64,000 nucleotides of DNA from the NCBI RefSeq assembly GCF_053078305.1, contig NZ_CP166879.1; one strand, written 5' to 3'. Of this stretch, positions 23,922-54,785 are shown in pieces; the stretch's first letter is position 1; every line of letters starts with the position of its first letter. The notes under the pieces are model-generated. The model ran no database searches. It saw nothing but the letters and a program-made list of their open reading frames with translations, and was not told the origin of the DNA. The position numbers were made by a program, and so were the translations under genes.

Positions 23922-24197
23922 CTATTTTTTATCTTCTTTTCTTTCTTGTAACTTTGCTTTTATCCAAATACCAATCCCTGCTAACATACCAGCCCCTCCC
24001 CCCACCTTTAAAGAATAAATAATATCTGCCCTCCAATCAAAAAATAAAACTTGAGTTTTAGAAAAAACTATCAGTCTACCAAGAATAGTACCTAACATTG
24101 CCATAAAAAAGATGCAAGCTATGCAGCGCATTATTAGTATGATAAGAATGTAAAAGTTGACACTCTTATTTATTTTTAATGGATTTATCAGCTTCAT
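23922..24197 (-). CDS. cdiI: CdiI-like immunity protein (small membrane protein), 91 aa
   Basis: Overlaps the cdiA 3' end by 32 bp; hydrophobic helices; position typical of CDI immunity genes. Function inferred from context. Confidence 0.55.
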   Translation of the reverse strand: MKLINPLKINKSVNFYILIILIMRCIACIFFMAMLGTILGRLIVFSKTQVLFFDWRADIIYSLKVGGGAGMLAGIGIWIKAKLQERKEDKK

Positions 24198-27100: not shown

Positions 27101-30100
27101 ACTTTCAGACTCTGGCTGCCCATGCTGAATCCCACACCTCCGGAGCTCATCAGCCCAGATTTTTTCTCCTGTTTCAGGTGTGTTTCACGGTTGCTTTCTG
27201 TCAGCGTGCCGATACTCAGGTCATTTCCGGCAGCCAGGGAGACACGGTTATCCCCGGCCACACTGCTGCCCGTGACGTTCAGATTATGTCCGGCACTGAT
27301 ACTGACCGTATCCCCGTTCAGTTCACTGCCCGTCATGGTCCGGCGGTCAGTGACATCATGCGTGGTTGTGGTGGTTTTCGATAACATCCCGCTGCTGCCG
27401 GTCACTTTATGGTATTCATCCAGCGAGCGGGTATTCTGTGCACCGGTCAGCGTCACGTCATGACCTGCCATCAGGGCCAGGCCTTTCTGAGCTGACAGCG
27501 ATGCCGCCTGTGACGTCATATCCCGTCCGGCGGTCAGCGTGACATCACCGTTACCGGCAAGCGTGCTGCCCGTACTCTGTGTGACGCCCTGCGACAGACG
27601 ATTATTTTTATCCCAGATAATATTGTCCTGCGCGGAAGTGGTCACAGTGGAAAGCGTCATATCCCTGCCCGCACTGAGTTGCGTCAGGCTGTCCTTACCC
27701 TGATTCACCACCGTTGCAGCCGTCAGATTCATATCCCGTCCGGCCTGCAGCACCAGTCTTCCCTGGTCGTTCTGCACATACACGCCGGCCACACTGTCGA
27801 TACTGGTACGTTCAAAATGGTTCTGTCCGGCGTCGCGCTGTGCCGTACGGGTGGTGGTGGTCAGACTGATATCCCGTCCGGCCATCGCCAGCAGGCTGTC
27901 CGTGGCCTGCAGCAGCCCGCCGGTACTGTTAATATCCGTCCGGGCCGTCAGGCTGACATTTGCTCCCTGAATGGAGCCGGCCTGGTTGTGAATGTTTTCT
28001 GCACTGAGCTGCACGGTCTGCTTCCCGGCCAGTTTACCGCTGTTAAACAGGTCACCATCCAGCTTCATCACCATGTCCCTGCCGGCAATCAGCGCACCGG
28101 CGCTGTTCACATCACCGGGTTTTACACGGGCATACACCTGAGGTACCTGAACCGTCTGCGTGCTGCCGTCCGGCAGTGTCACCGTGGTGTTAACCAGCCA
28201 GACAATATCACCGGTCAGTAACGCCATCTGCTCAGCAGTCAGCGCCACACCTGGTGTCAGGTTGTATTGCTTACCAAATGCAATACCCGCATCCATTAAC
28301 GCCTTAAACTGCTCTTCATCATTACTGTATCCGTCCAGGTACCGTTGCCCGGTCAGAGCGACAACCTGCTCACGAATCAGACGCTGTTCGTAAAAACCAT
28401 CCCCCAGGCGTTTGAGCATGTTATCCCCGTTCTGAGAAAACGCCTTCTGCATGTAATCACTGCCCAGCCACGTCTTCTGGTTCGTAAAACGCGGGTCCGT
28501 TTCAACCAGATATGGCACATTCACTGCCGGGTTTGTTTTAAACAGGCTGCTGTCCGGCAGACGGGTATCCGGCCCGGCAACATGGATACTGCCCTGAGGT
28601 GCGCTGACTTCAAACTGCTGCCCCGGCAACAGAATGACCGGTTCACCGGCAGACACCACCGGGCGAAGCGGTATCCGGTCAGTAGCGGCTACTGCCGCAT
28701 CCACATTTCCGGCCTGTCCTGTCTGTACATCCGTTCCCTGTGGCTTCAGAGGAGAAAGCGTGACCTGGCTGCCCTGAATCTGTCCGTGGCTGGTGAGCTC
28801 TCCCGGCTTCAGCGTAATGCTCTGAATTACAGTGGGCGGAGTGTACTGAGAGGTTTTCTCCCCCTGCTTATCCTTTCCTTTTTTCCTGATACGGTAATAA
28901 TACGTGGATGTTCCTGAGTCCGTAACATGCCGCTCGCCACTGACACTGACATTTTCCACGCTTCCTGACGGAATGGTCAGCAGGCCGCCTGCAACAACCT
29001 GACTCTTATCATTAAGCAGTTTGTCTGCCACAATCGTCATGCCGGCACCGGACAGAATTTTTCCCGGGTCGGAGTCTTTTACCCGGGTTTCTTCCACGGT
29101 ACGGGTGTAATCATACTGCGTGAATTTATCTCTGGCGCCTTCCGGTGTATGCAGTTTTTTCAGTGAGTTACTGGAATCGTTATCCACATAAACGCCCGGT
29201 TCACCGGCGCTCCAGCGTTTATCTGAGCCGCTGAGCTGATACTCAGTCACCTTTTCCGTGGAAACCACCACGCGCTCCGTGGTGAAATGGTCATTGACGT
29301 TATTGATTTGTCCGGCACTCAGTACCAGATATCCGGCGGCTTCAATAGTGGCACTGTGATTATTCAGTACACCGGCTTTCCCCGTGGCGGCACCATTCGC
29401 ATCCAGCATGCCACCAGTATGCATATCACCTGCACTGTAAATCAGGCTGTGCGTCCGGTTATTCAGGGTCTGTACCCCTAAGTCCACACGCTCACGCCCG
29501 GCCAGCGTCGCCGCCACGCCATTTTCTTCCAGATTATTAAATGTGGCAGCGCTGACACCAACAGCATCGCCGTAGATTCGCCCGGTACCGGAATTCGTCA
29601 GGGTGTTCGCCTGAAGATGCGTATATTTCCCGTCAATCAGCCCACGGTTCAGCAGTGTGTCCGTCACGTTAAGCCAGGTCTGCCCGGCACTGATTTCACC
29701 TTTCTCTGTGTTTTCAAGGCGGATGCTGTTCAGGTCAAGCCGGCTGCCTGCCAGCAGGCTGCCGGTATTAGAGACATCGCCATTAACGGAAAGCGTAAGG
29801 TTTCCGTTCGCAATAGTCTGACCACTGTTGCTGAACGTTGTGTTACTTTTCAGCGTCATATCGCCCAGCGAAAGCAGTTTCCCGTCACCACCGAGCTGAC
29901 CGGCATCCACAGATACTGACTGCCCGGCCTTAACCACGCCGTCACGGTTCGAAAACGCCAGCTGACGGCCACTGACAGACAATGTCGCGCCGGAAGAGAG
30001 GACGCCGTCATTATTACTGAGCGTCCTGTCTGCCATAACCGTAAGCGCCCTGTCTGCCAGAATACTGCCCTCCTGGTTATCAAGGTCCTGCGTCGTGATG

Positions 30101-33100
30101 TGTATTGTCTGCGCTTCCAGCCCCTGACCGGTATTCTGCGTGTGGCGATTGATAAACTGCAGGGCGTTCAGCGTAATGGCGGAACCACTGCGAATCAGAC
30201 CAGAGACGTTGTCCACAACGCCCCGTACACTGTTGAGCAACATGTCGCCCACAGACTGTATTTGTCCGTGGCTGTTCTGCAGACCTCCCGTATGCAGACG
30301 GAGTTCACCTTCACTGACCAGCCGGCCCCCCTCACGGTTATCCAGCGAGGTGGTGCTCAGGTCAGCTGTCGTTTTCGCCCCCACGGTCCCGCCCCGGTTA
30401 TCCATTGCTCCGGTACTGACAGTCAGTTCCTGCAGGCTGTTCAGCGTACCGCGTCTGTTATCCAGCGTCTGGCCTGCGGTATTAATGCTGATACCCCTCC
30501 CCTGAATAAGACCGGACTGATTGTTCAGCGCCTGGCTGTTCCAGCCGAGCAGACCGTTTGCCACCATCTGACCGGATGTATTGTTAACCACGCCTGCAGT
30601 CAGGGACAGAGCATCTCCCGACAAAAGCACACCGGCAGTGCTGTCCAGTGTGCCGGCATTCAGCGTCATCGGACCCTGACTGATAACCCCGCCCCGGTCA
30701 CCACTATTACGGTTACTCAGTGTGTCAGCACGGAGATTCAGCGATGCACCGCTCTGTATCAGGCCGCCGGCATCGTTGATGATATCCGTCGAGGAAAGTG
30801 TCAGTGACTGCTGTGCCACCAGTCTGCCGCCCTGATTATCAAACCGTGTGACATCCAGCCTGCTGTTACCGTTGCTGACCACCGTCCCCTGCTGATTTTC
30901 CAGCACACTCAGGTGCGTATTCAGGTCCCCGCCGGCGGCAAGCGCCCCTTCCTGATTACTGACATCACCACCACTCAGCAACATATCCGTCCCGGCCTTC
31001 AGTGCGCCTTTCTGGTTCATCAGCGTACCTGACGATATCTGTAATGACGTCTGACTCCCCAGCACGCCCTGACGGTTATCGAGCGTTCCGGCGTTCAGGG
31101 TCATATCCTTCTGACCCGCCATAAATCCCTGCTGGTTATTCAGCATACCGGCCCGCACTGTCAGGGTACCGGCGCTGCTGATACCACCCCGTGTTTTCGT
31201 GTTCCGGTTACTGAGTACCCCGTCCTGTACATCCAGCGTCATGTCACTGCCGGACTGAATCAGACCATCATCAGAGACCAGTTCGCTGCCTGACACAGAC
31301 AGCGTTTTCTGTGAAAGCAGTCTGCCGGACGTATTATCCAGCGCACCATCCAGCGTCACAGACAGCCCGTCAGCCACCACCGTACCCTGGTGGTTATTCA
31401 GATTCCCTGCCGAAATATCCAGCCTGCCGGCGGACTCCATTCGTCCCTCAGTATTGCTGACAGCCTGCTGTGTTTTTATCCTGCCCGTTCCGGCAGCAGC
31501 TGAAATCAGTCCGTTGTCGTTATTCAGCGCCTGTGTATTAATCAGGATGTCACGGCTGGCAAGCAGACGTCCCTGCTGGTTATCCACGGCGCCGGTTGTC
31601 CTCACCTGCAGACTGCCTGACTGCGCCGCCTGCACTTTCCCCCTGCGATTATCAAGGCTCAGTGCATCCAGACGCACCGCGCCATTTGCCGCAAACAGCC
31701 CTTCCCGGTTATCCACGCTTCCCGGCAGACTCAGCGAAAAATCCCCTGTTCCCGTCTGAGTCAGACTGCCTTTACGATTTGACAGGCTTTGTGCCGATAT
31801 CTGCAGTGTGTCGGCATTTATCGTGCCACCATTATTGCTGAAGTGCCCGACAGTCCGGGCGGAAAGCGTACCGGCACTCAGTTGCGCATTCTGTGTGGAC
31901 AGATTTCCACTGGTTGCATCCAGCTCAGTATGTTGTCCCTGTATCCGGCTGTTGCTTAAATCCAGCCCCTGCCCCTTCAGTTGCATGTCCCCACCGGACA
32001 GAACCTGTCCGTGTGCCGCCAGTTCGCCGGTGGTACTGACAGTCAGGTTGCCCGCTGCCGCCAGACGTCCGTCATCTTTCACCCCGGCGGCCAGCAGACT
32101 CCGCTCACCGCCGGTCAGACGCGCTGTCTGAATCCGGGTGTTGCGACGTGATGCCACAGAGCCTGTATGGGTGAAGACACCATCACTCTGTATCTGCGTA
32201 TCCTGCCCCGCATAAACAGAACCACTGTTATGCAGCTCCCGGGTTGTCGCCAGATGCACATCCGTTTTCGCACTGATACTGCCACTGTTTTCAATACGTC
32301 CGTCAGCCGTCAGGGTAACCGCCCCTGCCTGTGCACCAATATGACCGGCGTTACGAACACCCACCCCCGTTTCCGTACCGACAAGGCGAATTTTTCCGGC
32401 ATACATTCCGCCAAGACTGGCCACATCCAGTGCCATCTGAGGCTGTGAAGAGACATCACCGGTCTTTTTCTCAATCTGCCCGTGCGCGATATCCACATTG
32501 TTACGTCCTGTGGTCACTTTCAGATCCTGCGCCCAGATACCCGCATTAATCTTCACAGACCGGGCAATGATATCGGTATAATCCGTGCGCGAGGCATCCA
32601 TCCCTTTGCCCGTAACCTGAATCTCACCACGTTCAACACTGAATCCGGTCAGACTGCCGTTTTTCATCTGCGGCTGCCCCGTGGTCAGCGTGGCCCGGTT
32701 CGCATTAATAAAACCGCACCCGTCGCAACTGATGCCGGCCGGGTTCGCAATCACCACCTGCGCCTTTTTACCGGCAACCTCAACAAAACCGTTCAACTGG
32801 CTGGGATTGCGACTGTTCACTTCATTAAGAATGATTCTGGCCTCTCCCTTAGCCAGCCACGGGTTCCCGGCCACCATGCCACCCAGTTGAGTCTGCACAT
32901 TGTTATGGGCATTATTCAGAATGACGCCCTGGTTACCGACGTCGAACTGGCTGTATGCGTTATGTGAAACCCCGCCGGCAGAAGGCGTCTGAATATTCAC
33001 CTGCGGAATGCCGCTGGCCGTCTGCGTAATCGTGGGCTGCTGATACCCTGGTGCGCCATGGTCTGCGACAATGCCTGCAGCACTGACAGAATGCACCATC

Positions 33101-33279
33101 CCCGAAGCCAGCCACAAAGAGAATGCAAGCGGCGTGACACGGCAGATACGTTGCCTGTGTGGATATCCTGTGCGGGAGGACAGTGATGTACCGGCGCGAC
33201 CGGAACGGGCAATATCTGCCACCACCATCAGCATTCCCCGGGCTTTGTTAAAAATAATGCGGTAACAATTTCTGTTCAT
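24166..33279 (-). CDS. cdiA: CdiA contact-dependent inhibition exoprotein (TpsA/filamentous haemagglutinin family), 3037 aa, with VENN-delimited C-terminal toxin
   Basis: Extended signal peptide (YRIIFNKARG...VVADIARSG), TPS secretion domain (NPAGISCDGCGFINANRATLTTG), long haemagglutinin-type repeats, VENN motif 274 aa before the C-terminus. Confidence 0.85.
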   Translation of the reverse strand: MNRNCYRIIFNKARGMLMVVADIARSGRAGTSLSSRTGYPHRQRICRVTPLAFSLWLASGMVHSVSAAGIVADHGAPGYQQPTITQTASGIPQVNIQTPSAGGVSHNAYSQFDVGNQGVILNNAHNNVQTQLGGMVAGNPWLAKGEARIILNEVNSRNPSQLNGFVEVAGKKAQVVIANPAGISCDGCGFINANRATLTTGQPQMKNGSLTGFSVERGEIQVTGKGMDASRTDYTDIIARSVKINAGIWAQDLKVTTGRNNVDIAHGQIEKKTGDVSSQPQMALDVASLGGMYAGKIRLVGTETGVGVRNAGHIGAQAGAVTLTADGRIENSGSISAKTDVHLATTRELHNSGSVYAGQDTQIQSDGVFTHTGSVASRRNTRIQTARLTGGERSLLAAGVKDDGRLAAAGNLTVSTTGELAAHGQVLSGGDMQLKGQGLDLSNSRIQGQHTELDATSGNLSTQNAQLSAGTLSARTVGHFSNNGGTINADTLQISAQSLSNRKGSLTQTGTGDFSLSLPGSVDNREGLFAANGAVRLDALSLDNRRGKVQAAQSGSLQVRTTGAVDNQQGRLLASRDILINTQALNNDNGLISAAAGTGRIKTQQAVSNTEGRMESAGRLDISAGNLNNHQGTVVADGLSVTLDGALDNTSGRLLSQKTLSVSGSELVSDDGLIQSGSDMTLDVQDGVLSNRNTKTRGGISSAGTLTVRAGMLNNQQGFMAGQKDMTLNAGTLDNRQGVLGSQTSLQISSGTLMNQKGALKAGTDMLLSGGDVSNQEGALAAGGDLNTHLSVLENQQGTVVSNGNSRLDVTRFDNQGGRLVAQQSLTLSSTDIINDAGGLIQSGASLNLRADTLSNRNSGDRGGVISQGPMTLNAGTLDSTAGVLLSGDALSLTAGVVNNTSGQMVANGLLGWNSQALNNQSGLIQGRGISINTAGQTLDNRRGTLNSLQELTVSTGAMDNRGGTVGAKTTADLSTTSLDNREGGRLVSEGELRLHTGGLQNSHGQIQSVGDMLLNSVRGVVDNVSGLIRSGSAITLNALQFINRHTQNTGQGLEAQTIHITTQDLDNQEGSILADRALTVMADRTLSNNDGVLSSGATLSVSGRQLAFSNRDGVVKAGQSVSVDAGQLGGDGKLLSLGDMTLKSNTTFSNSGQTIANGNLTLSVNGDVSNTGSLLAGSRLDLNSIRLENTEKGEISAGQTWLNVTDTLLNRGLIDGKYTHLQANTLTNSGTGRIYGDAVGVSAATFNNLEENGVAATLAGRERVDLGVQTLNNRTHSLIYSAGDMHTGGMLDANGAATGKAGVLNNHSATIEAAGYLVLSAGQINNVNDHFTTERVVVSTEKVTEYQLSGSDKRWSAGEPGVYVDNDSSNSLKKLHTPEGARDKFTQYDYTRTVEETRVKDSDPGKILSGAGMTIVADKLLNDKSQVVAGGLLTIPSGSVENVSVSGERHVTDSGTSTYYYRIRKKGKDKQGEKTSQYTPPTVIQSITLKPGELTSHGQIQGSQVTLSPLKPQGTDVQTGQAGNVDAAVAATDRIPLRPVVSAGEPVILLPGQQFEVSAPQGSIHVAGPDTRLPDSSLFKTNPAVNVPYLVETDPRFTNQKTWLGSDYMQKAFSQNGDNMLKRLGDGFYEQRLIREQVVALTGQRYLDGYSNDEEQFKALMDAGIAFGKQYNLTPGVALTAEQMALLTGDIVWLVNTTVTLPDGSTQTVQVPQVYARVKPGDVNSAGALIAGRDMVMKLDGDLFNSGKLAGKQTVQLSAENIHNQAGSIQGANVSLTARTDINSTGGLLQATDSLLAMAGRDISLTTTTRTAQRDAGQNHFERTSIDSVAGVYVQNDQGRLVLQAGRDMNLTAATVVNQGKDSLTQLSAGRDMTLSTVTTSAQDNIIWDKNNRLSQGVTQSTGSTLAGNGDVTLTAGRDMTSQAASLSAQKGLALMAGHDVTLTGAQNTRSLDEYHKVTGSSGMLSKTTTTTHDVTDRRTMTGSELNGDTVSISAGHNLNVTGSSVAGDNRVSLAAGNDLSIGTLTESNRETHLKQEKKSGLMSSGGVGFSMGSQSLKVTDTATDTTQKGSTVGSVHGDVSLQAGNRLTVNGSDLIAGRDMALSGKEVSITAATDQHVQTHTVEQKTSGLTLALSGTAGSALNTTVETVQAAKSAGNSRLEALQGVKAALSGAQAVQAGRLADAQGADAGNNNTVGISLSYGSQSSKSEQQSEQTVAKGSTLTAGNNLSIQATGSGVKGVDGDLTIQGSQIKAGNNVLLQANRDVNLVSAENTSKLEGKNTSSGGSVGVGVGVGSGGWGISVSASANQGKGSEKGNGTTHTETTVDAGNRLTIISGRDTTLTGAQAGGETVKVDAGRHLTLTSEQDSDRYDSKQQNASAGGSFIFGSMSGSASVNLSRDKMHSNYDSVQEQTGIFAGRGGFDVTTGQHTQLNGAVIASTATADKNRLDTGTLGFSDIENRADFKTEHQSTGLSTGGSVAGNFLGNMANNLLVGANHEGHADSTTQSAVSAGNITIRDTQSQKQDVADLNRDAAHANQTLSPIFDREKEQQRLQQAQLIGEIGNQVADIARTEGQIAGEKAKRDPAALNQARAELEAAGKPFTEQDVAQRAYNNGMAASGFGTGGKYQQAIQAATAAVQGLAGGNLSAALAGGAAPYIAEIIKNNTPDGAGRVAAHAVVNAALAVAQGNNALAGAAGAATGEVVGMIATQMYGKPVSELSETEKQTVSTLATVAAGLAGGLVGNSGASAVAGAQSGKTTVENNFLGATSSDKLDKAIEKIRNGDKTLATANELIKLENADKRSDALVSKFNKDPSQLNSAERAELAAYLRVYASEMEKEYGTAVAQELVTGLLSGQDYIKRNPDTEAMAKAQSIMNTWGYHKSNASIGDAPLLFGGSVLGLTVKGMATNAAIGISVNSAAQLAGKGPFSYVDAIMAGVTAAATTGKGIIVSTPINMSGAAIGSSIKGEDPTNSVIGTGLGSVFGGGIGKVISGSMGSTVKEGTSDIIGNIGGTITGEAIGNVTKGTLDEADKSIKNK

Positions 33280-33294
33280 TCTGATAAACCTGAC

Positions 33295-33822
33295 TTATCT
33301 CTCCGGCACATCCACAGCAAGCGGGTGCTGCACACGCCACTGGCGCGCCTCTTCACGACTGACCTGTGCACCCCGGAAATTCATCACCCGTAACCCGGTC
33401 TGCTGCCCACGGTGGTACAGCGAACGCCAGCACAGACGGGGAAAAATATCCTGCCGGACAAGACGACTCATATCCGGAGTGTGTCCAAAAGGGGCAACCC
33501 AGTCACAGACCCACATCCGGTCGCCGCTGTTCCAGTCCGACTGAGGCATGAGAATTGCCGGCTGCGTAAGATAACGCGCCTCTGCCTCCGGGCTGAGCCA
33601 GGCCTGGCTCATGAAGAAAACCGGTCGCCCCTGCTCTGTTGCCACCACATACTGTCGGTGCTTAATCACCGGCAGCAGCAGGTCCGGCAGGGTATGCAGT
33701 GGCGCATCACGATGCAGGGGGGAGTGCATCCACAACCAGACGGCCGCCCCCAGGACTTCCGCCTCATTGACCGGCTCACCGGAATACAGGGGACTCAGAA
33801 CGTCATATTTCCCGTTACGCAT
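33295..33822 (-). CDS. cdiC: HlyC-family toxin-activating lysine acyltransferase (CdiC-like), 175 aa
   Basis: HlyC-like blocks WLWMHSPLHRDAP and SGDRMWVCDWVAPFG; sits between cdiB and cdiA. Confidence 0.7.
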   Translation of the reverse strand: MRNGKYDVLSPLYSGEPVNEAEVLGAAVWLWMHSPLHRDAPLHTLPDLLLPVIKHRQYVVATEQGRPVFFMSQAWLSPEAEARYLTQPAILMPQSDWNSGDRMWVCDWVAPFGHTPDMSRLVRQDIFPRLCWRSLYHRGQQTGLRVMNFRGAQVSREEARQWRVQHPLAVDVPER

Positions 33823-33831
33823 GAAACTTTC

Positions 33832-35571
33832 TCAGAAATCCCGGAACAGATTAAAACCGGCTGTCACATCACTCGTCATAAAACCCGCCGGCTTTGAAAA
33901 CGGACGACCGATGAAAACGTCATAATCCGTACTGAACAGTTGCCCCCTCAGCCCCACAACACCACCGGCCAGATGACGTCCCACCAGATATTCACTGCCG
34001 GCTCCCCCCACCTCGCCGTAATCCATTCCCAGATATAACGCCTGCTCCGGCAGTGGCGTACGCCAGGCCAGGTCGTTGCGGATATACCAGCCGTTACTGG
34101 CATTCAGCGTTCGCTCCCCGTCAAAACCACGAACCGTCCAGCGGTTACCGATGGCAAACTGTTCCTGTGGGGTCAGCGGGGTATTGCTCAGCTGGCGCTG
34201 ATACCGGAAGGAATAACTGAAGGGCTGCTCTGCCAGTGTAAAGGGCAGATTAAAGGATGCATTCATCTGCAGGATCTTACTGAGCGCCGTTGCCTCACCG
34301 AAGATTTCCTCCGGTGCCGGCTGTGCACCAAACCAGCGGGTTCCCCGTTGCCAGCTGACACCAGCATCCAGTGTGGCCTGAGAAATATAATGACGGTGCT
34401 GCAGCCCAAGTCGCCAGGCCGCTGTCTGCCGGCGCTGCACCTGGATTTCCGTATCATTAATGTAGTTACGCGACCTGCGGGCCTGAACATCGTAAGTCAG
34501 CACCGTTTTCTGCGTCCCGTTACGATGCAGTACCCGGCTCAGCTGCATGCCCAGATTCTGACTCTCGCCACTGTACTGGTAATCCTCAACCGCACCAGCT
34601 ACCGTCTGATGGTAATCGTAATCACTGGCGGTGACGGAAAACTGCCAGTAACCGAAAGGCACAGAGTAATGGGCCGTGTAGTTTTTACTGCCCTTACCCC
34701 CGTAATGTGGAAAATTATGGGTGGCAGAAACATACAGCAGGTCACTCAGGGAAAAAGGATTATCCAGAGAAAATGTTATACCACCGAGATAACGCCCTGT
34801 GCTGCGGGTACCTGAATCATCAAGCGAAAACCCCAGTCGCCAGTATTTATCCTGTTTACGGGTAATAAGAATATCACTTTCCCCTGGCTGCTCACCGGGC
34901 ACAATTTCCATATCAGCCTGCACACCCGGCAGTCGTTGCATATTCTCCAGCCCCTGCTCAATGTCCCGTAAATCCAGCAGAGAACCTTCGTGTGCCGGGA
35001 ATGAGGAATACAACTGAATATAGTCATCACTGTCCGGTGTCAGACGCACATGTCGCACAACACCGGGAATAATAACCAGCCGGAGGATACCGCTTTTTAA
35101 ATCCTGCGAAGGTGCCAGAACACGGGTGGTGACATAACCATGATCGACCAGACGGTTCTGCAATGTACTCATCAGCAGATTAATTCCTTTCGCCCCCAGG
35201 CAATGCCCGACCGCCCCGTTGGCGATTTTTTGTAAAGGCAGCCAGTGTGGTAACGCATCAGCCCCCTTCAGTTCCGTCTGTTTAATCTGAAAACAGGGCG
35301 TTTCAACAGGAAAATTAATCTTATGGGCAAAAGAGCCAGGTGCAGAAAGGCGAACATCAGGGGCTGAAGGCGTCAGTTGTTGCTCAAGGGCTTCCTGACG
35401 CTGCTGCTGAATGATAAATGTATCCTCTCCACTACGCCGGATATCCGCTGCCTGAAGAGATAAAGGCGATAGTAAAACAGACATCAGTGTCAGTGACAGC
35501 AAGGACGGACAGCGCCGGAATACGCTTTGTTCCTCAGCCCTCTCGTTCCTGCAACATAATTTTCCAGTCAA
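33832..35571 (-). CDS. cdiB: CdiB two-partner-secretion outer-membrane transporter (TpsB/ShlB/FhaC family), 579 aa
   Basis: Signal peptide, POTRA-like region, beta-barrel with C-terminal aromatic residue; immediately upstream of cdiC-cdiA. Confidence 0.8.
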
Positions 35572-36159
35572 ACGAAAAACCTTTTATTCATGCCATACCA
35601 ACAATCACCAGCCTCCTGACGATACCTCCCACCATGTTTTGCAGTGGTACGCTACCGCCCTTCCGGTATTTACCCACACCAACCGGTACCAGAATGCTGA
35701 GTAACAAATCCGTTCAGAATTGACTTAATTTTGATCATTATAGAATAATGATCTGAGCGACAGCAATATGACAGATTTATCGATCGATATAACACAAATG
35801 AACAGATCTTTATTCTGCCGAATATCGCAAAAACAGCATATCGCAAAACTTATAACCATAATTAATGGAAAAGTGCAGAAAATTATTCCACTGAATGCTT
35901 TTAATACAGTTGGTTAGCTAAAAAAATATCATTTTTTGATTTCAGTCATTGAAAATTGCAATGCGTGACGATTCAACAGCATTTAAGTGAGTTTCAGGAT
36001 ATGGGAAGGACATGAAAGGAGGAGCGTAATAAAACACACAGGAAGAAGGGGAAAATGTTTCGTAAAAACAGAAAATTAACAGCGCACATCAGGAAACTCA
36101 GTCTCCTGATTCAGTGCTACCACATGAAAATTTAGTTAACTGTTACCGTACTAAAATTT

Positions 36160-46121: not shown

Positions 46122-47141
46122 ATGAATAACGAACAGATGCTTATCAAATGCAAAGATCCCCGTAAATGTCGGTTTTATGCTGAATATCTGAATCACAAAT
46201 ACCCCAATGAATTCCCTCAGTTTGCGCCTGACAACCCACAAAACTGTATCAGAAATGTTAATGCGTTTTTAAAAGAAAAGTATTGTAATACTTCAAACAA
46301 TTCTTTTGGTGTTTTTGGTTCGACTGCAGAAGAAGCTCTCAGCAAAGAAATTAATGAACTTGAAATTATTGCAGGGCAGGCAATACTGCCTGAAGAGAGT
46401 TTTCTCTGGTTGAAAACTGACGAACTTGCGACTTTCTTTACCTGGACTACTATTTATCTGTCGAAGGAAGACCATACAAATTTCCCGGAAATAAACCATA
46501 ATTCATCAGGGATAAAAAACGGAATTGAAGTCAGAAAAAGACGAACAGTTACCGATGAAACGTTAAATACTTACAAAAAAAGTAACCTTCCGGATAATCC
46601 ATCATCCCATAACGAACGAATAAAAGTAATCATTTTATATTTTGATTCCTGTCATTCTTTAATTAATAAAAATGCAAAAAGCATATACCTCGAGGAACTC
46701 AGGCAGACGTGGCTTAAAAATAAAAGCGCTTGTCAAAAGTTTAAGTGGCTCCTTCCTGACGATGATGAAATGTGTCAGTGGTTCTGGACAAGACTGAAAC
46801 AAAAACAGGATGAAACACATCCGGTACATAACCCGGTGACCCGGTGGTTCATACCATCTTCAACGAAAGAATATTATCTTGCCTCTCTCGTCGCCTTTGC
46901 TTTATGGAAAGAGGCACCTGATACCATTGAACTGTTCAGAACACGCATAAATCATGCCTGGCATCAAAAAAAACAAAAAGACAAATATCGGAATGATGGT
47001 AAAAAGGCTATTAATATACATATAAGAAGCAATGCGAAAGAAATGCTTGATGAACTCAGAACTGTTTACGGTCTGAGAACAGGAGAGTTTTTTGAAATGC
47101 TGATTACAGAAAAATATCTTGAACACAAGCGAAGGAAGTAA
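46122..47141 (+). CDS. Hypothetical protein, 339 aa, strongly AT-rich (Lys/Asn-rich)
   Basis: Long ORF after a noncoding AT-rich stretch of about 1.1 kb; foreign composition. Confidence 0.5.
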   Translation: MNNEQMLIKCKDPRKCRFYAEYLNHKYPNEFPQFAPDNPQNCIRNVNAFLKEKYCNTSNNSFGVFGSTAEEALSKEINELEIIAGQAILPEESFLWLKTDELATFFTWTTIYLSKEDHTNFPEINHNSSGIKNGIEVRKRRTVTDETLNTYKKSNLPDNPSSHNERIKVIILYFDSCHSLINKNAKSIYLEELRQTWLKNKSACQKFKWLLPDDDEMCQWFWTRLKQKQDETHPVHNPVTRWFIPSSTKEYYLASLVAFALWKEAPDTIELFRTRINHAWHQKKQKDKYRNDGKKAINIHIRSNAKEMLDELRTVYGLRTGEFFEMLITEKYLEHKRRK

Positions 47142-47250
47142 TTCATTACCTGTTACATTCTAAATAATCTCAGACAGATATTATCTCCGTGAATCCCCCG
47201 CCACCTTTCCGGTGCGCGGGGTTTTGTCTTTTTTCACCGGGAATACATGT

Positions 47251-48123
47251 ATGAATCCGTCTGATGCCATTGAGGCAATTGAAAAACCGCTCTCCTCCCT
47301 GCCTTACTCACTTTCCCGTCACATCCTGGAACATCTGCGCAAACTCACCAGCCACGAACCCGTGATTGGCATTATGGGGAAAAGCGGGGCCGGTAAATCC
47401 TCACTCTGTAATGCACTGTTTCAGGGGGAGGTCACCCCGGTCAGTGATGTTCACGCCGGCACCCGGGAAGTGCGGCGCTTCCGTCTGAGTGGCCATGGTC
47501 ACAACATGGTTATCACTGACCTGCCCGGGGTGGGTGAGAGCCGGGACAGGGATGCAGAGTATGAAGCCCTGTACCGTGACATTCTGCCTGAACTTGACCT
47601 GGTGCTGTGGCTGATTAAAGCCGATGACCGTGCCATGTCTGTGGATGAGTATTTCTGGCGACACATCCTGCACCAGGGACATCAGCAGGTGCTGTTTGTG
47701 GTGACACAGGCCGACAAAACGGAGCCCTGCCATGAATGGGATATGGCCGGTATTCAGCCTTCTCCCGCACAGGCACAGAATATTCGCGAAAAAACGGAGG
47801 CGGTATTCCGTCTGTTCCGGCCCGTACATCCGGTTGTGGCCGTATCGGCCCGCACCGGCTGGGAACTGGATACGCTGGTCAGTGCGCTCATGACAGCGCT
47901 TCCCGACCATGCCGCCAGTCCCCTGATGACCCGCCTGCAGGACGAGCTGCGCACGGAATCTGTCCGCTCTCAGGCCCGTGAACAGTTTACCGGTGCGGTG
48001 GACCGGATATTTGACACGGCGGAGAGCGTCTGTGTTGCCTCTGTTGCCCGTACGGTTCTGCGTGCCGTCCGTGACACGGTGGTCTCTGTTGCCCGCGCTG
48101 TATGGAACTGGATTTTCTTCTGA
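47251..48123 (+). CDS. yeeP: YeeP/YkfA/YfjP-family GTPase (50S ribosome-binding GTPase-like), about 290 aa
   Basis: P-loop GKSGAGKSSL, DLPG motif; conserved position upstream of agn43 in CP4-44-like modules. Start set at the first in-frame ATG with a plausible context. Confidence 0.7.
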   Translation: MNPSDAIEAIEKPLSSLPYSLSRHILEHLRKLTSHEPVIGIMGKSGAGKSSLCNALFQGEVTPVSDVHAGTREVRRFRLSGHGHNMVITDLPGVGESRDRDAEYEALYRDILPELDLVLWLIKADDRAMSVDEYFWRHILHQGHQQVLFVVTQADKTEPCHEWDMAGIQPSPAQAQNIREKTEAVFRLFRPVHPVVAVSARTGWELDTLVSALMTALPDHAASPLMTRLQDELRTESVRSQAREQFTGAVDRIFDTAESVCVASVARTVLRAVRDTVVSVARAVWNWIFF

Positions 48124-48241
48124 ACACTCTGCCAGGAAAATGCCTGATTACATTGCGTTAACCAACTGAAAACATGACACAAACACCTCATGCTCCTCCT
48201 GTTTCTCTTGCGTGACCGCCTTGCAATCAATAGAATAAAAC

Positions 48242-48277
48242 GATCGATAAAACAGATATCGATCGTTACTATCGATC
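48242..48277. promoter_or_regulatory. Three closely spaced GATC (Dam) sites in the agn43 upstream region: candidate OxyR/Dam phase-variation switch
   Basis: GATC at 48242, 48261 and 48274 within cgatcgataaaacagatatcgatcgttactatcgatcgtt, about 220 bp upstream of the agn43 ATG. Confidence 0.65.
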
Positions 48278-48494
48278 GTTTATAGTGGTTAATGGTCTGC
48301 GAAAAGGCAGTTGAATCTCTTCATCATGCAGAACGGAATTGCACAAAACGGACTGATACTTCTCTGGCGGATGAGAGAGGGGAAGCATTTATGTCCGGGA
48401 AAAACCACTGTATCTGACCATGCTGTTTTGTACCTGCCGGTATCCACATTTGTGGGTACCGGCTTTTTTATTCACCCTCTGTAAGGAAAAGCTG

Positions 48495-51400
48495 ATGAAA
48501 CGACATCTGAACACCAGCTACAGGCTGGTATGGAATCACATTACGGGCACCCTGGTGGTGGCCTCCGAACTGGCCCGCTCACGGGGAAAACGCGCCGGTG
48601 TGGCGGTTGCTCTGTCTCTTGCTACTGTCACGTCAGTCCCGGCACTGGCTGCTGACACGGTTGTTCAGGCAGGAGAAACCGTGAATGGCGGAACACTGGT
48701 AAACCATGACAACCAGTTTGTATCCGGAACAGCTGATGGCGTGACTGTCAGTACCGGGCTTGAGCTGGGGCCGGACAGTGACGAAAACACCGGCGGGCAA
48801 TGGATAAAAGCGGGTGGCACAGGCAGAAACACCACTGTCACCGCAAATGGTCGTCAGATTGTGCAGGCAGGAGGAACTGCCAGTGATACGGTTATTCGTG
48901 ACGGCGGGGGACAGAGCCTGAACGGGCTGGCGGTGAACACCACGCTGAATAACAGAGGCGAGCAGTGGGTTCATGAGGGCGGGGTTGCCACCGGTACAAT
49001 TATCAACCGCGACGGTTACCAGAGCGTTAAAAGTGGCGGGCTGGCAACAGGAACCATCATCAACACCGGCGCAGAAGGCGGCCCGGATTCTGACAACTCG
49101 TACACGGGTCAGAAGGTCCAGGGAACAGCAGAATCCACCACCATCAACAAAAATGGACGGCAGATTATCTTATTTTCCGGGATAGCCCGTGACACTCTCA
49201 TTTACGCAGGTGGTGACCAGTCGGTACACGGAAGGGCCCTGAATACCACACTGAATGGCGGTTACCAGTATGTGCACAAGGACGGACTTGCGCTGAACAC
49301 GGTAATTAACGAGGGGGGCTGGCAGGTTGTTAAGGCAGGTGGTGCTGTCGGTAACACCACCATAAATCAGAACGGTGAACTGAGAGTACATGCCGGCGGG
49401 GAAGCAACTGCAGTCACCCAGAACACGGGCGGTGCACTGGTTACCAGTACGGCTGCAACCGTTACCGGCATAAACCGCCTGGGAGCATTCTCCGTTGTGG
49501 CGGGTAAGGCTGATAATGTCGTACTGGAAAATGGCGGACGTCTGGATGTGCTGAGCGGACACACAGCCACTAATACCCGTGTGGATGATGGCGGAACGCT
49601 GGATGTCCGCAACGGTGGTGCCGCCACCACCGTATCCATGGGGAATGGCGGTGTACTGCTGGCCGATTCCGGGGCCGCTGTCAGTGGTACCCGGAGCGAC
49701 GGAAAGGCATTCAGTATCGGAGGCGGTCAGGCGGATGCCCTGATGCTGGAAAAAGGCAGTTCCTTCACACTGAACGCCGGTGATACGGCCACGGATACCA
49801 CGGTAAATGGCGGACTGTTCACCGCCAGAGGGGGCTCGCTGGCGGGCACCACCACGCTGAATAACGGTGCCACGCTTACCCTTTCCGGGAAAACGGTGAA
49901 TAACGATACCCTGACCATCCATGAAGGTGATGCACTCCTGCAGGGAGGCGCTCTTACCGGTAACGGCAGGGTGGAAAAATCAGGAAGTGGCACACTCACT
50001 GTCAGCAACACCACACTCATCCAGAAAACCGTCAACCTGAATGAAGGCACGCTGACGCTGAACGACAGTACCGTCACCACGGATGTCATCGCTCAGCGCG
50101 GCACGGCCCTGAAGCTGACCGGCAGCACAGTGCTGAACGGTGCCATTGACCCCACGAATGTCACCCTGACATCCGGTGCCACCTGGAATATCCCCGATAA
50201 CGCCACGGTGCAGTCGGTGGTGGATGACCTCAGCCATGCCGGACAGATTCATTTCACCTCCACCCGCACAGGGAAGTTCGTACCGGCAACCCTGAAAGTG
50301 AAAAACCTGAACGGGCAGAATGGCACCATCAGCCTGCGTGTACGCCCGGATATGGCACAGAACAATGCTGACAGACTGGTCATTGACGGCGGCAGGGCAA
50401 CCGGAAAAACCATCCTGAACATGGTGAACGCCGGCAACAGTGCGTCGGGGCTGGCGACCAGCGGTAAGGGTATTCAGGTGGTGGAAGCCATTAACGGTGC
50501 CACCACGGAGGAAGGGGCCTTTGTCCAGGGGAACAGGCTGCAGGCCGGGGCCTTTAACTACTCCCTCAACCGGGACAGTGATGAGAGCTGGTATCTGCGC
50601 AGTGAAAATGCTTATCGTGCAGAAGTCCCCCTGTATGCCTCCATGCTGACACAGGCAATGGACTATGACCGGATTCTGGCAGGCTCCCGCAGCCATCAGA
50701 CCGGTGTAAACGGTGAAAATAACAGCGTCCGTCTCAGCATTCAGGGCGGCCATCTCGGTCACGATAACAACGGCGGTATTGTCCGTGGGGCCACGCCGGA
50801 AAGCAGCGGCAGCTATGGCTTCGTCCGCCTGGAGGGTGACCTGCTGAGAACAGAGGTTGCCGGTATGTCTCTGACGACAGGGGTGTATGGTGCTGCAGGC
50901 CATTCTTCCGTTGATGTTAAGAATGATGACGGCTCCCGTGCCGGCACGGTCCGGGATGATGCCGGCAGTCTGGGCGGATACCTGAATCTGGTACACAACG
51001 CCTCCGGCCTGTGGGCTGACATTGTGGCCCAGGGAACCCGCCACAGCATGAAAGCGTCATCGGACAATAACGACTTCCGCGCCCGGGGCTGGGGCTGGCT
51101 GGGCTCACTGGAAACCGGTCTGCCCTTCAGTATCACTGACAATCTGATGCTGGAGCCGCAACTGCAGTACACCTGGCAGGGACTCTCCCTGGATGACGGC
51201 CAGGATAACGCCGGTTATGTGAAGTTCGGGCATGGCAGTGCACAACATGTGCGTGCCGGTTTCCGTCTGGGCAGCCACAACGATATGACCTTTGGTGAAG
51301 GCACCTCATCCCGTGACACCCTGCGCGGCAGTGCCAAACACAGTGTGCGTGAACTGCCGGTGAACTGGTGGGTACAGCCTTCTGTTATCCGCACCTTCAG

Positions 51401-51617
51401 CTCCCGGGGGGACATGAGCATGGGTACAGCCGCAGCCGGCAGTAACATGACGTTCTCACCGTCACAGAATGGTACGTCACTGGACCTGCAGGCCGGACTG
51501 GAAGCCCGTGTCCGGGAAAATATCACCCTGGGCGTTCAGGCTGGTTATGTCCACAGCGTCAGCGGCAGCAGCGCTGAAGGCTATAACGGTCAGGCCACGC
51601 TGAATGTGACCTTCTGA
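48495..51617 (+). CDS. flu: Antigen 43 autotransporter adhesin, about 1040 aa
   Basis: N-terminus MKRHLNTSYRLVWNHITGTLVVASELARSRG (extended signal peptide), passenger repeats, C-terminal beta-barrel ending ...NVTF. Confidence 0.85.
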   Translation: MKRHLNTSYRLVWNHITGTLVVASELARSRGKRAGVAVALSLATVTSVPALAADTVVQAGETVNGGTLVNHDNQFVSGTADGVTVSTGLELGPDSDENTGGQWIKAGGTGRNTTVTANGRQIVQAGGTASDTVIRDGGGQSLNGLAVNTTLNNRGEQWVHEGGVATGTIINRDGYQSVKSGGLATGTIINTGAEGGPDSDNSYTGQKVQGTAESTTINKNGRQIILFSGIARDTLIYAGGDQSVHGRALNTTLNGGYQYVHKDGLALNTVINEGGWQVVKAGGAVGNTTINQNGELRVHAGGEATAVTQNTGGALVTSTAATVTGINRLGAFSVVAGKADNVVLENGGRLDVLSGHTATNTRVDDGGTLDVRNGGAATTVSMGNGGVLLADSGAAVSGTRSDGKAFSIGGGQADALMLEKGSSFTLNAGDTATDTTVNGGLFTARGGSLAGTTTLNNGATLTLSGKTVNNDTLTIHEGDALLQGGALTGNGRVEKSGSGTLTVSNTTLIQKTVNLNEGTLTLNDSTVTTDVIAQRGTALKLTGSTVLNGAIDPTNVTLTSGATWNIPDNATVQSVVDDLSHAGQIHFTSTRTGKFVPATLKVKNLNGQNGTISLRVRPDMAQNNADRLVIDGGRATGKTILNMVNAGNSASGLATSGKGIQVVEAINGATTEEGAFVQGNRLQAGAFNYSLNRDSDESWYLRSENAYRAEVPLYASMLTQAMDYDRILAGSRSHQTGVNGENNSVRLSIQGGHLGHDNNGGIVRGATPESSGSYGFVRLEGDLLRTEVAGMSLTTGVYGAAGHSSVDVKNDDGSRAGTVRDDAGSLGGYLNLVHNASGLWADIVAQGTRHSMKASSDNNDFRARGWGWLGSLETGLPFSITDNLMLEPQLQYTWQGLSLDDGQDNAGYVKFGHGSAQHVRAGFRLGSHNDMTFGEGTSSRDTLRGSAKHSVRELPVNWWVQPSVIRTFSSRGDMSMGTAAAGSNMTFSPSQNGTSLDLQAGLEARVRENITLGVQAGYVHSVSGSSAEGYNGQATLNVTF

Positions 51618-51737
51618 CAGAACCATCGCCTCTCTGTGGTCCCGGTCATCATGATCGGGACCCGGACCGGCGCAACGGATATTCAACGCCACATTCGCTG
51701 GCATTAACAATAACATGATATTCATCACGGAGTGACT

Positions 51738-54254
51738 ATGTTACAGATAGTCGGCGCGCTGATCCTGCTGATCGCAGGATTTGCCATTCTTCGCCTTTTG
51801 TTCAGAGCATTAATCAGCACGGCTTCTGCGCTGGCAGGGCTCATATTGCTGTGTCTGTTCGGCCCGGCCTTACTGGCTGGCTATATCACCGAACGCATAA
51901 CCCGGTTGTTCCATATTCGCTGGCTGGCAGGCGTATTTCTGACGATTGCCGGAATGATCATCAGCTTCATGTGGGGACTTGATGGTAAACATATCGCGCT
52001 GGAGGCTCACACCTTTGACTCTGTGAAATTTATTCTGACCACCGCTCTCGCCGGTGGTCTGCTGGCTGTTCCCCTGCAGATCAAAAACATTCAGCAGAAC
52101 GGGATCACACCAGAAGATATCAGCAAGGAAATTAACGGGTATTACTGCTGTTTTTATACTGCCTTTTTCCTTATGGCGTGTTCTGCATGCGCACCATTGA
52201 TCGCGTTACAGTACGATATTTCACCGTCACTGATGTGGTGGGGCGGGTTGTTGTACTGGCTGGCTGCATTAGTGACGCTGCTATGGGCGGCCAGCCAGAT
52301 CCAGGCGCTGAAAAAACTGACCTGTGCCATCAGCCAGACACTGGAAGAACAACCGGTGCTCAACAGTAAATCGTGGCTGACCAGTTTGCAAAACGATTAC
52401 AGCCTTCCTGACTCACTGACGGAGCGCATCTGGCTGACGCTCATTTCACAACGGATTTCCCGGGGAGAGCTGAGGGAATTTGAACTGGCAGACGGAAACT
52501 GGTTACTGAACAATGCCTGGTATGAAAGAAACATGGCAGGGTTTAACGAACAGTTGAAAGAGAACCTGTCATTCACACCTGATGAACTGAAAACGCTCTT
52601 CCGGAACCGCCTGAATTTATCACCGGAAGCGAATGACGATTTTCTCGATCGTTGCCTGGACGGCGGTGACTGGTATCCCTTTTCAGAAGGTCGCCGTTTT
52701 GTATCATTCCATCACGTGGATGAGCTTCGTATCTGTGCCTCCTGCGGGCTGACAGAAGTACATCATGCCCCGGAAAATCATAAGCCGGATCCGGAATGGT
52801 ACTGCTCCTCTCTTTGTCGCGAAACAGAAACACTGTGTCAGGAAATTTATGAACGCCCTTACAACAGCTTTATTTCCGATGCAACGGCGAATGGTCTGAT
52901 TCTCATGAAACTGCCGGAAACCTGGAGTACAAATGAGAAAATGTTTGCTTCCGGAGGGCAGGGACATGGGTTTGCCGCTGAACGGGGAAACCATATTGTC
53001 GACAGAGTCCGTCTGAAAAACGCACGGATCCTCGGTGATAATAATGCCAGAAATGGAGCAGACAGACTGGTCAGCGGAACAGAAATCCAGACGAAATATT
53101 GTTCAACTGCAGCCCGTAGCGTCGGTGCGGCATTCGACGGACAAAACGGACAGTATCGTTACATGGGAAATAATGGCCCCATGCAACTGGAAGTCCCCCG
53201 TGATCAGTATGCCGGCGCTGTTGAAACCATGAGGAATAAGATCCGCGAAGGTAAAGTACCCGGTGTAACCGATCCCGCAGAAGCGTCCCGGCTGATTCGT
53301 CGGGGACATCTGACTTATACTCAGGCCCGTAATATCACCCGGTTCGGGACCATCGAATCGGTCACTTATGATATTGCCGAGGGGTCGGTTGTCAGTCTGG
53401 CGGCCGGAGGGATCAGTTTTGCCCTGACGGCATCGGTCTTCTGGCTCAGCACCGGCGAGCGCGATGCTGCCCTGCAGACAGCTGCTGTCCAGGCAGGAAA
53501 AACCTTCACCCGCACACTGGCTGTCTACGTCACAACCCAGCAACTCCACCGGCTCAGTGTTGTTCAGGGTATGCTGAAGCACATTGATTTTTCGACTGCC
53601 AGCCCGACTGTCCGACTGGCTCTTCAGAAGGGGACCGGTGCAGGAAATATCAGTGCCCTGAACAAAGTGATGAAGGGTACGCTGGTGACATCTCTGGCAC
53701 TGGTAGCTGTCACAACCGGCCCTGACATGATCAAAATGTTGCGGGGACGGATCTCCGGTACGCAGTTCATCAGGAATCTTGCCGTGGCATCTTCCGGTGT
53801 GGCAGGTGGAGCTGTCGGGTCAGTGGCGGGCGGGATACTGTTCAGTCCACTGGGACCATTTGGTGCACTGACAGGGCGTGTGGTTGGCGGTGTTCTGGGG
53901 GGAATGATTGCCTCCGCTGTATCAGGAAAAATTGCCGGAGCGCTGGTTGAAGAAGATCGCGTCAAAATTCTGGCAATGATTCAGGAGCAGGTGACATGGC
54001 TTGCCGGCAGTTTCCTGCTGACCGGACATGAGATTGAAAATCTGAACGAGAATCTGGCCCGTGTTATCGATCAGAATGCTCTGGAGATCATTTTCGCCGC
54101 CGGTATACAACAACGGGCCGCGACCAATATGTTAATCAAACCACTGGTGGTCAGTATCATCAGGCAACGCCCCGTCATGGAATATGATGCATCCCATCTC
54201 GGCAATATGGTTAACCGACTGGAAGAAGCATTACCCCCGGAGTTACCGGCATAA
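51738..54254 (+). CDS. YeeR-like inner-membrane protein (long form, about 838 aa)
   Basis: Several N-terminal TM helices; position after agn43 as in CP4-44-like modules; GGAG 6 nt before the ATG at 51738. Confidence 0.55.
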   Translation: MLQIVGALILLIAGFAILRLLFRALISTASALAGLILLCLFGPALLAGYITERITRLFHIRWLAGVFLTIAGMIISFMWGLDGKHIALEAHTFDSVKFILTTALAGGLLAVPLQIKNIQQNGITPEDISKEINGYYCCFYTAFFLMACSACAPLIALQYDISPSLMWWGGLLYWLAALVTLLWAASQIQALKKLTCAISQTLEEQPVLNSKSWLTSLQNDYSLPDSLTERIWLTLISQRISRGELREFELADGNWLLNNAWYERNMAGFNEQLKENLSFTPDELKTLFRNRLNLSPEANDDFLDRCLDGGDWYPFSEGRRFVSFHHVDELRICASCGLTEVHHAPENHKPDPEWYCSSLCRETETLCQEIYERPYNSFISDATANGLILMKLPETWSTNEKMFASGGQGHGFAAERGNHIVDRVRLKNARILGDNNARNGADRLVSGTEIQTKYCSTAARSVGAAFDGQNGQYRYMGNNGPMQLEVPRDQYAGAVETMRNKIREGKVPGVTDPAEASRLIRRGHLTYTQARNITRFGTIESVTYDIAEGSVVSLAAGGISFALTASVFWLSTGERDAALQTAAVQAGKTFTRTLAVYVTTQQLHRLSVVQGMLKHIDFSTASPTVRLALQKGTGAGNISALNKVMKGTLVTSLALVAVTTGPDMIKMLRGRISGTQFIRNLAVASSGVAGGAVGSVAGGILFSPLGPFGALTGRVVGGVLGGMIASAVSGKIAGALVEEDRVKILAMIQEQVTWLAGSFLLTGHEIENLNENLARVIDQNALEIIFAAGIQQRAATNMLIKPLVVSIIRQRPVMEYDASHLGNMVNRLEEALPPELPA

Positions 54255-54329: not shown

Positions 54330-54785
54330 ATGATTCACCTGTTCAAAACCTGCATGATTACCGCCTTCATTCTGGGGTTAACGTGGTCTGCCCCACTCCG
54401 GGCACAGGATCAACGTTACATCAGTATACGCAATACAGATACGATATGGCTCCCGGGAAATATTTGTGCTTACCAGTTCCGGCTGGATAATGGCGGAAAC
54501 GATGAAGGATTTGGCCCCCTCACCATCACTCTGCAACTCAAAGACAAATATGGTCAGACGCTGGTGACCAGAAAAATGGAAACGGAAGCTTTTGGTGACA
54601 GTAATGCCACGCGAACCACAGACGCATTTCTGGAAACGGAGTGCGTGGAAAATGTCGCCACAACCGAAATCATTAAAGCAACTGAAGAAAGTAACGGCCA
54701 TCGTGTCAGTCTGCCGTTATCGGTTTTCAATCCCCAGGACTACCATCCACTGCTGATTACCGTTTCCGGAAAAAACGTTAACTGA
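54330..54785 (+). CDS. Hypothetical secreted protein, 151 aa
   Basis: N-terminal signal peptide (MIHLFKTCMITAFILGLTWSAPLRA). Confidence 0.45.
   Translation: MIHLFKTCMITAFILGLTWSAPLRAQDQRYISIRNTDTIWLPGNICAYQFRLDNGGNDEGFGPLTITLQLKDKYGQTLVTRKMETEAFGDSNATRTTDAFLETECVENVATTEIIKATEESNGHRVSLPLSVFNPQDYHPLLITVSGKNVN

Follow-up and report, generated by a model that had tools for sequence, protein, structure and literature searches.

The GATC element upstream of agn43 (flu) in the window, by which we mean the whole 64,000-nucleotide stretch of DNA that was analysed, is very probably a functional Dam/OxyR phase switch of this gene. Ag43 acts in cell aggregation, biofilm formation and persistence. The features of the region are given below; promoter elements, half-sites and leader RNA are predictions.

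47212-48123: YeeP-like GTPase gene upstream of agn43
48208-48213, plus strand: -35-like hexamer TTGCGT, separated from the -10 hexamer by 17 bp (sequence reading)
48230-48244: OxyR half-site 1, ATAGAATAAAACGAT, 8 of 10 positions matching the consensus ATAGnTnnnAnCTAT in a half-site scan whose score counts matches over ten positions and is no measure of binding; overlaps the -10 hexamer and GATC-I
48231-48236, plus strand: -10 hexamer TAGAAT, within the block AATAGAATAAAAC
48242-48245, strand not applicable: GATC-I (direct sequence reading)
48242-48469, plus strand: leader RNA of the IS102 family, with a 5' hairpin that GATC-II and GATC-III form, a variable middle and a 3' terminator (Rfam and fold)
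48261-48264, strand not applicable: GATC-II (sequence reading, comparison with K-12, comparison of alleles)
48262-48276: OxyR half-site 2, ATCGTTACTATCGAT, 8 of 10 in the same scan, its outer elements being GATC-II and GATC-III
48274-48277, strand not applicable: GATC-III (evidence as for GATC-II)
48436-48463, plus strand: intrinsic-terminator-like hairpin with 8 GC pairs in its 12 bp stem; TTTTTT comes next at 48464-48469
48495-51617, plus strand: agn43, encoding a 1040 aa Ag43 autotransporter (Pfam ESPR, AIDA, AC_1 and Autotransporter)
51732-54254, plus strand: yeeR, second gene of the operon, 840 aa, 805 of 840 residues shared with the CFT073 homologue
54330-54785, plus strand: irmA, third gene of the operon, 151 aa, 150 of 151 residues shared with CFT073 IrmA

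The original prediction described three GATC sites 19 and 13 bp apart in the agn43 leader, and this was confirmed. The sites start at 48242, 48261 and 48274, with the start-to-start spacing of K-12 flu, and precede the Ag43 start codon (48495) by 253, 234 and 221 nt, within the 371-bp gap between the end of the GTPase gene (48123) and agn43. The clustering by itself is unremarkable and weak evidence. The window contains 164 GATC in 64 kb, and with this number some triplet within 32 bp is obtained in about 37% of random placements, which is what a chance cluster in AT-rich intergenic DNA with no regulatory role would have in its favour. However, the expectation for an exact 19/13 triplet is only about 1e-3 per window, the register is that of K-12, and the sites are kept across thousands of genomes, with all three in the same register in 19 of the 21 sampled alleles. 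The agn43 triplet is also the only one within 32 bp in the window. It is the homology to K-12 and the conservation among alleles that raise the triplet above chance; these data refute the reading as a chance cluster, to which we assign next to no probability.

For the comparison with K-12 MG1655 the MAFFT alignment was out of register, placing GATC-III of the window on GATC-II of K-12, and a gapless alignment anchored on the 17-mer AATAGAATAAAACGATC was used instead. In this alignment the three GATC of the window fall on GATC-I, -II and -III of the K-12 flu regulatory region (locus positions 2318, 2337 and 2350), directly after the identical 17-mer and -10 block. Both loci also share the two half-sites matching at 8 of 10 positions, the IS102-family leader, the terminator and a coding sequence free of GATC. 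They differ at 10 of the 36 core positions, mostly between GATC-I and GATC-II (GATAAAACAGAT versus AATATCTATTTT), where the CTAT element is gone in the window. The K-12 leader is 222 nt long and that of the window 253 nt, and their middle parts are unalignable.

The original prediction had named the arrangement as the known Dam/OxyR type, and register, half-sites, leader family and the Ag43 gene downstream all point to this. Far from lying outside the OxyR region, all three GATC are found inside OxyR half-site consensus elements: by sequence reading their methylatable adenines belong to the outer ATAG/CTAT elements of the half-sites, and the fourth such element overlaps the -10 hexamer. The OxyR(C199S) footprint on K-12 DNA, as described by Wallecha and colleagues in 2002, reportedly extends from about -16 to +42, with the start at the G of the first GATC. 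Transferred to the window this presumably corresponds to about 48226-48283, which would span both half-sites. The starts of the two half-sites are 32 bp apart, and a centre-to-centre distance of 32 bp is canonical for reduced OxyR (PMC4856963). Together they match at 16 of 20 positions and are the only pair with at least 15 of 20 at a spacing of 22 or 32 bp in a scan of the whole 64 kb. Half-site 1 (ATAGAATAAAACGAT) and half-site 2 (ATCGTTnnTATCGAT), each with 8 of 10 matches, were present in every allele scored by the half-site scan. No conserved OxyR-type site was found further upstream in the window allele, which thus lacks the three or more half-sites upstream of the promoter by which gtr and opvAB are recognized.

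With AACA in the place of CTAT, the window matches at only 10 of 20 positions in the classical K-12 register (spacing of 22 bp, start at -2), compared with 14 of 20 in K-12 and CFT073b. Should the CTAT element be important, the class of alleles to which the window belongs could have another affinity and another switching bias.

The promoter was assigned by homology in place of a consensus scan. The scan reported no promoter, because the -35 hexamer TTGCGT is weak and matches TTGACA at only three of six positions. The sequence TCTTG at the -35 region is unchanged in all 19 distinct allele sequences, and the 13-bp -10 block AATAGAATAAAAC is the same in 20 of 21 alleles, the exception being Nissle 1917 with AAGAAT. 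The G of GATC-I (48242) is most likely the transcription start, as predicted by homology only. In K-12 the IsrC RNA of the RefSeq annotation extends from the G of GATC-I to the T-run of the hairpin just before flu. By 5' RACE the operon start in EC958 was mapped 228 nt upstream of the ATG (PMC4807369). The same distance of 228 nt separates the G of GATC-I from the ATG in CFT073 agn43a, which by homology would place the start in the window at about 48242. From the 228-nt start-site distance alone, the EC958 allele would belong to the short-leader class described below.

Between the G of GATC-I and the start codon the leader measures 253 nt. It matches the IS102 family of Rfam (RF00124, 48240-48476) with 74.7 bits and E=2e-12, where the gathering score is 46, has a fold z-score of -2.6, and its K-12 counterpart is the region annotated as IsrC RNA. 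The K-12 terminator hairpin is nearly identical, and the annotated IsrC ends at its T-run. In the window the agn43 start codon comes 26 nt after the end of the T-run. Ag43 expression therefore needs read-through of the hairpin, and an IsrC-like RNA of about 228 nt is the likely by-product. An in-frame ATG is present upstream at 48420, from which the frame reads through the hairpin; at the corresponding place of the MAFFT alignment K-12 has no in-frame ATG.

This leader raises the question whether the CGATCG palindromes act chiefly in RNA, as the 5' stem-loop of an IS102-type leader or small RNA, with Dam and OxyR incidental here. GATC-II and GATC-III indeed form the conserved 5' hairpin in the Rfam IS102 model as well as in the predicted minimum-free-energy fold, and the strong terminator at the end of the leader makes a short RNA a likely product. 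However, such a hairpin requires neither GATC specifically, nor GATC-I, nor the overlap with an invariant -10 block, whereas conservation tracks the OxyR half-site pattern. A role in RNA is moreover compatible with a Dam/OxyR role and does not exclude it, and as the chief function of the palindromes we consider it very improbable.

The functional Dam/OxyR switch is further supported by the comparison of alleles. The intergenic region of the window type was found by megablast in 3,445 of 5,426 complete E. coli genomes, whereas the CFT073a/K-12 type is less common with 1,839 genomes of the same set. Among the 21 alleles compared, which represent 19 distinct sequences, two classes occur. The short-leader class (220-228 nt) includes K-12, CFT073a, CFT073b, Nissle and several others and has CTAT between GATC-I and GATC-II; the long-leader class (252-253 nt) includes the window, O157:H7 cah and others and has GATAAAACAGrTAT at this place. 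Across the 19 distinct sequences variation touches only two of the 12 GATC columns, where one allele each departs from the rest (2 of 228 cells), and one column of the 13-bp -10 block is variable. In contrast, 14 of the 24 remaining columns of the core are variable, as are 16 of 17 in the promoter spacer and 22 of 24 on the downstream side of GATC-III. That GATC and half-sites are kept amid variable flanks argues for continued selection on the OxyR/Dam function.

The exceptions are few. Strain 300444 carries AATC in place of GATC-I, an Escherichia contig in a 'Collinsella' MAG (L032) has GATA in place of GATC-III, and in Nissle 1917 the change of the -10 hexamer from TAGAAT to AAGAAT at the same time destroys the ATAG of half-site 1. 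All three variants may be locked or biased alleles.

They also bear on the possibility that the window carries a degenerate or strongly biased switch, to which OxyR would bind weakly or differently throughout the long-leader class owing to the loss of CTAT between GATC-I and GATC-II, leaving this copy mostly ON or switching at very different rates instead of varying as K-12 does. Natural alleles with a lost GATC or an altered -10 show that decay is possible, the score in the classical register falls from 14 to 10 of 20, and 10 of the 36 core positions are unlike K-12. In addition, we found no paper on OxyR binding, Dam dependence, phase variation or the methylome of cah-type or long-leader alleles, and thus no experimental test of this class in the literature. 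On the other hand, the long-leader class is the commoner one, it retains the three GATC and both half-sites (8 of 10 each) while the flanks vary, and the lost CTAT element is unnecessary for the 32-bp geometry. A degenerate or biased switch is therefore quite improbable in our view, and the functional switch remains the preferred reading.

The analysis establishes the sequence anatomy of the element, its homology and conservation, and the uniqueness of its OxyR-type site in the window. For the long-leader class we infer OxyR binding, methylation sensitivity, start site and phase variation, and the switch would operate as follows. A sigma-70 promoter (-35 TTGCGT, -10 TAGAAT) would drive transcription from the G of GATC-I at 48242. 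An OxyR tetramer, whatever its oxidation state, would occupy both half-sites (48230-48244 and 48262-48276) at their spacing of 32 bp, and when bound would lie over the -10 hexamer and the start site and reach ~35 nt into the leader. In the OFF state OxyR would repress transcription and at the same time shield the three GATC from Dam. If Dam methylates the GATC after replication, ahead of OxyR rebinding, methyl-adenines would be placed in three of the four ATAG/CTAT elements; in the resulting ON state OxyR would be unable to bind the methylated elements. To reach agn43, transcripts would also have to read through the strong terminator hairpin, located 26 nt ahead of the start codon.

The surroundings of the switch are unusually poor in GATC. 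The agn43 coding sequence contains none, compared with 8.8 +/- 2.2 expected from synonymous-codon shuffles, where 0 of 1,000 shuffles fell below 2, and GATC is the most depleted of the 256 tetramers in this gene. All six Asp codons before a C-initial codon are GAC, and after a G, Ile is never encoded by ATC. Other alleles behave alike: GATC counts are 0 in K-12 flu, 0 in CFT073a, 2 in CFT073b (10.6 expected) and 0 in a Cah-type allele (6.4 expected). The upstream GTPase gene also has 0 (3.2 expected), whereas GATC is not depleted in yeeR, sat, iha, iutA and iuc. As a result, the switch triplet represents the only GATC from 46155 to 51653 (5.5 kb). GATC is generally under-represented in mobile elements (PMC4659465). 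Unlike this general trend, the depletion in the agn43 region is gene-specific, and we found no description of GATC avoidance in agn43 in the literature examined.

These observations can be linked in a proposal that we regard as rather doubtful, namely that the 32-bp half-site pair from the -10 hexamer to GATC-III is the functional OxyR site in all agn43 alleles and that the lack of GATC in agn43 and in the GTPase gene upstream is selected as a component of the switch. If true, the classical 22-bp K-12 register would be dispensable and the leader classes could differ in switching kinetics. The GATC-free zone could then insulate the switch from processive Dam, SeqA or MutH at neighbouring sites.

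A second cluster of GATC, four sites in 76 bp, is located on the minus strand at 35733-35808, upstream of an operon with the following genes.

33832-35571, minus strand: tpsB
33295-33822, minus strand: lysine-acyltransferase gene
24166-33279, minus strand: tpsA, of the filamentous-haemagglutinin type, 3037 aa

Depletion in tpsA is stronger than in agn43 (3 GATC against 31 expected, z -6.8), and conservation of the region 35733-35808 extends to 1,275 E. coli genomes. This region was considered as a second OxyR/Dam switch and rejected, as its best half-site pair matches at only 12 of 20 positions; it may be a Dam-sensitive regulatory region with another regulator.

Genome contigs were also scanned with the 17-mer AATAGAATAAAACGATC, which gave 38 matches where about 35 are expected by chance. 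Real agn43 switches among these were only two short contigs (L032 and L033), which evidently come from Escherichia and were mis-binned into a Collinsella MAG. As none of the Escherichia representative genomes was matched, the scan says little on the distribution across species. One match is found in Frischella japonica Ac13 (NZ_JABURY010000016, 9382-9330, minus strand). Here a second GATC follows exactly 19 bp on, within ATCGTAAATATCTAT, which matches the OxyR half-site at 8 of 10 positions; the third GATC is absent. The site is located in a non-coding gap of ~860 bp that reaches from crr/lpdA to the convergent hslVU, with two terminator-like hairpins downstream, and within this gap neither an ORF of at least 80 aa nor an Rfam match was found. 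In this bee-gut bacterium an OxyR/Dam-type site may drive a small RNA, or the resemblance may be a coincidence that AT-rich sequence lengthens.

The gene context of the switch is that of an intact operon. The agn43-yeeR-irmA genes have been defined as an operon (PMC4807369), and the order GTPase-agn43-yeeR-irmA in the window matches that of CFT073. Window Ag43 is 87.4% identical to K-12 Flu, 89.1% to CFT073 Ag43b and 90.6% to CFT073 Ag43a. In the nearest complete genome, GPEC1176 (99.2% identity), the genes are annotated likewise, as agn43 and 'IrmA family protein'. K-12 differs in having yeeP annotated as a pseudogene, unlike the GTPase gene of the window. Moreover, yeeR is disrupted and irmA possibly deleted in K-12 (PMC4807369), whereas the operon of the window is intact.

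Elsewhere in the window, the minus strand carries at 10753-17258 an ORF of 1652 aa that is Ser/Thr-kinase-like in its N-terminal region and has SF1 helicase motifs towards its C-terminus. This ORF has sub-threshold NCBIfam matches to the anti-phage MADS6 kinase, BREX PglW and the PLuB helicase, and is followed by a 515-aa ORF with no family match. The two ORFs may form a defence module.

The switch predicts heterogeneous expression of the whole agn43-yeeR-irmA operon of this island. On/off switching of Ag43 gives mixed populations, which bears on the reading of experiments and on Ag43 and IrmA as vaccine targets.

Heritable methylation patterns that arise from competition between Dam and a DNA-binding regulator are known from the pap family, where the regulator is Lrp, and in this respect agn43 and pap are alike. 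The pap switch relies on two GATC boxes separated by about 102 bp, together with Lrp and a PapI-like protein (PMC2909390). None of this anatomy is present in the window, where no GATC other than the three of the switch, all within 36 bp, occurs between 46155 and 51653.

Closer to the window are the Salmonella gtr (P22, LT2) and opvAB systems, which likewise have GATC inside OxyR half-sites. In gtr a GATC pair 13 bp apart is located within one half-site (PMC2909390), the same design as in half-site 2 of the window, and in opvAB adjacent half-sites are 32 bp apart, the geometry of reduced OxyR (PMC4856963). For the control of both systems OxyR's oxidation state is irrelevant (PMC2909390, PMC4856963). 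However, in gtr and opvAB alternative sets among three or four half-sites upstream of the promoter are occupied, and OxyR both activates and represses gtr, whereas the single OxyR-type site over the -10 hexamer and leader of the window would make only repression possible.

Among agn43 loci, both copies of CFT073 (agn43a and agn43b) share with the window the GTPase-agn43-yeeR-irmA context, the three GATC at 19/13 and the half-sites. They are short-leader alleles (228 and 224 nt) with a CTAT-type element, and the window is a long-leader allele. O157:H7 cah and other long-leader alleles are nearest, with one to three base differences in the 36-bp core and leaders of 252-253 nt, although the passenger domain of Cah is shorter (about 948 aa) than that of window Ag43. 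Both agn43 allele groups have been described with three similarly spaced GATC, from which Dam/OxyR phase variation was inferred (PMC2808357).

Experimental support comes from K-12, the CFT073 loci (both short-leader) and EC958, and all direct evidence traceable to an allele examined here is for short-leader alleles. According to the K-12 model OxyR on the unmethylated site acts as a repressor of transcription and keeps Dam out, methylation keeps OxyR out, and replication reopens the competition (PMC3764049, PMC13337833, PMC4872104). Deletion of oxyR in EC958 increased agn43 transcription 121-fold in qRT-PCR, and OxyR repression of the co-transcribed IrmA was found in CFT073, EC958 and 83972 (PMC4807369). 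In CFT073 all six of the six GATC upstream of both agn43 copies were unmethylated in vivo (PMC4752239). A Dam/OxyR switch in front of agn43 is thus already known, and the finding is correct but ordinary. It adds no new biology; its modest value is that the commonest E. coli variant of the switch, including O157 cah, has been inferred from K-12-type alleles.
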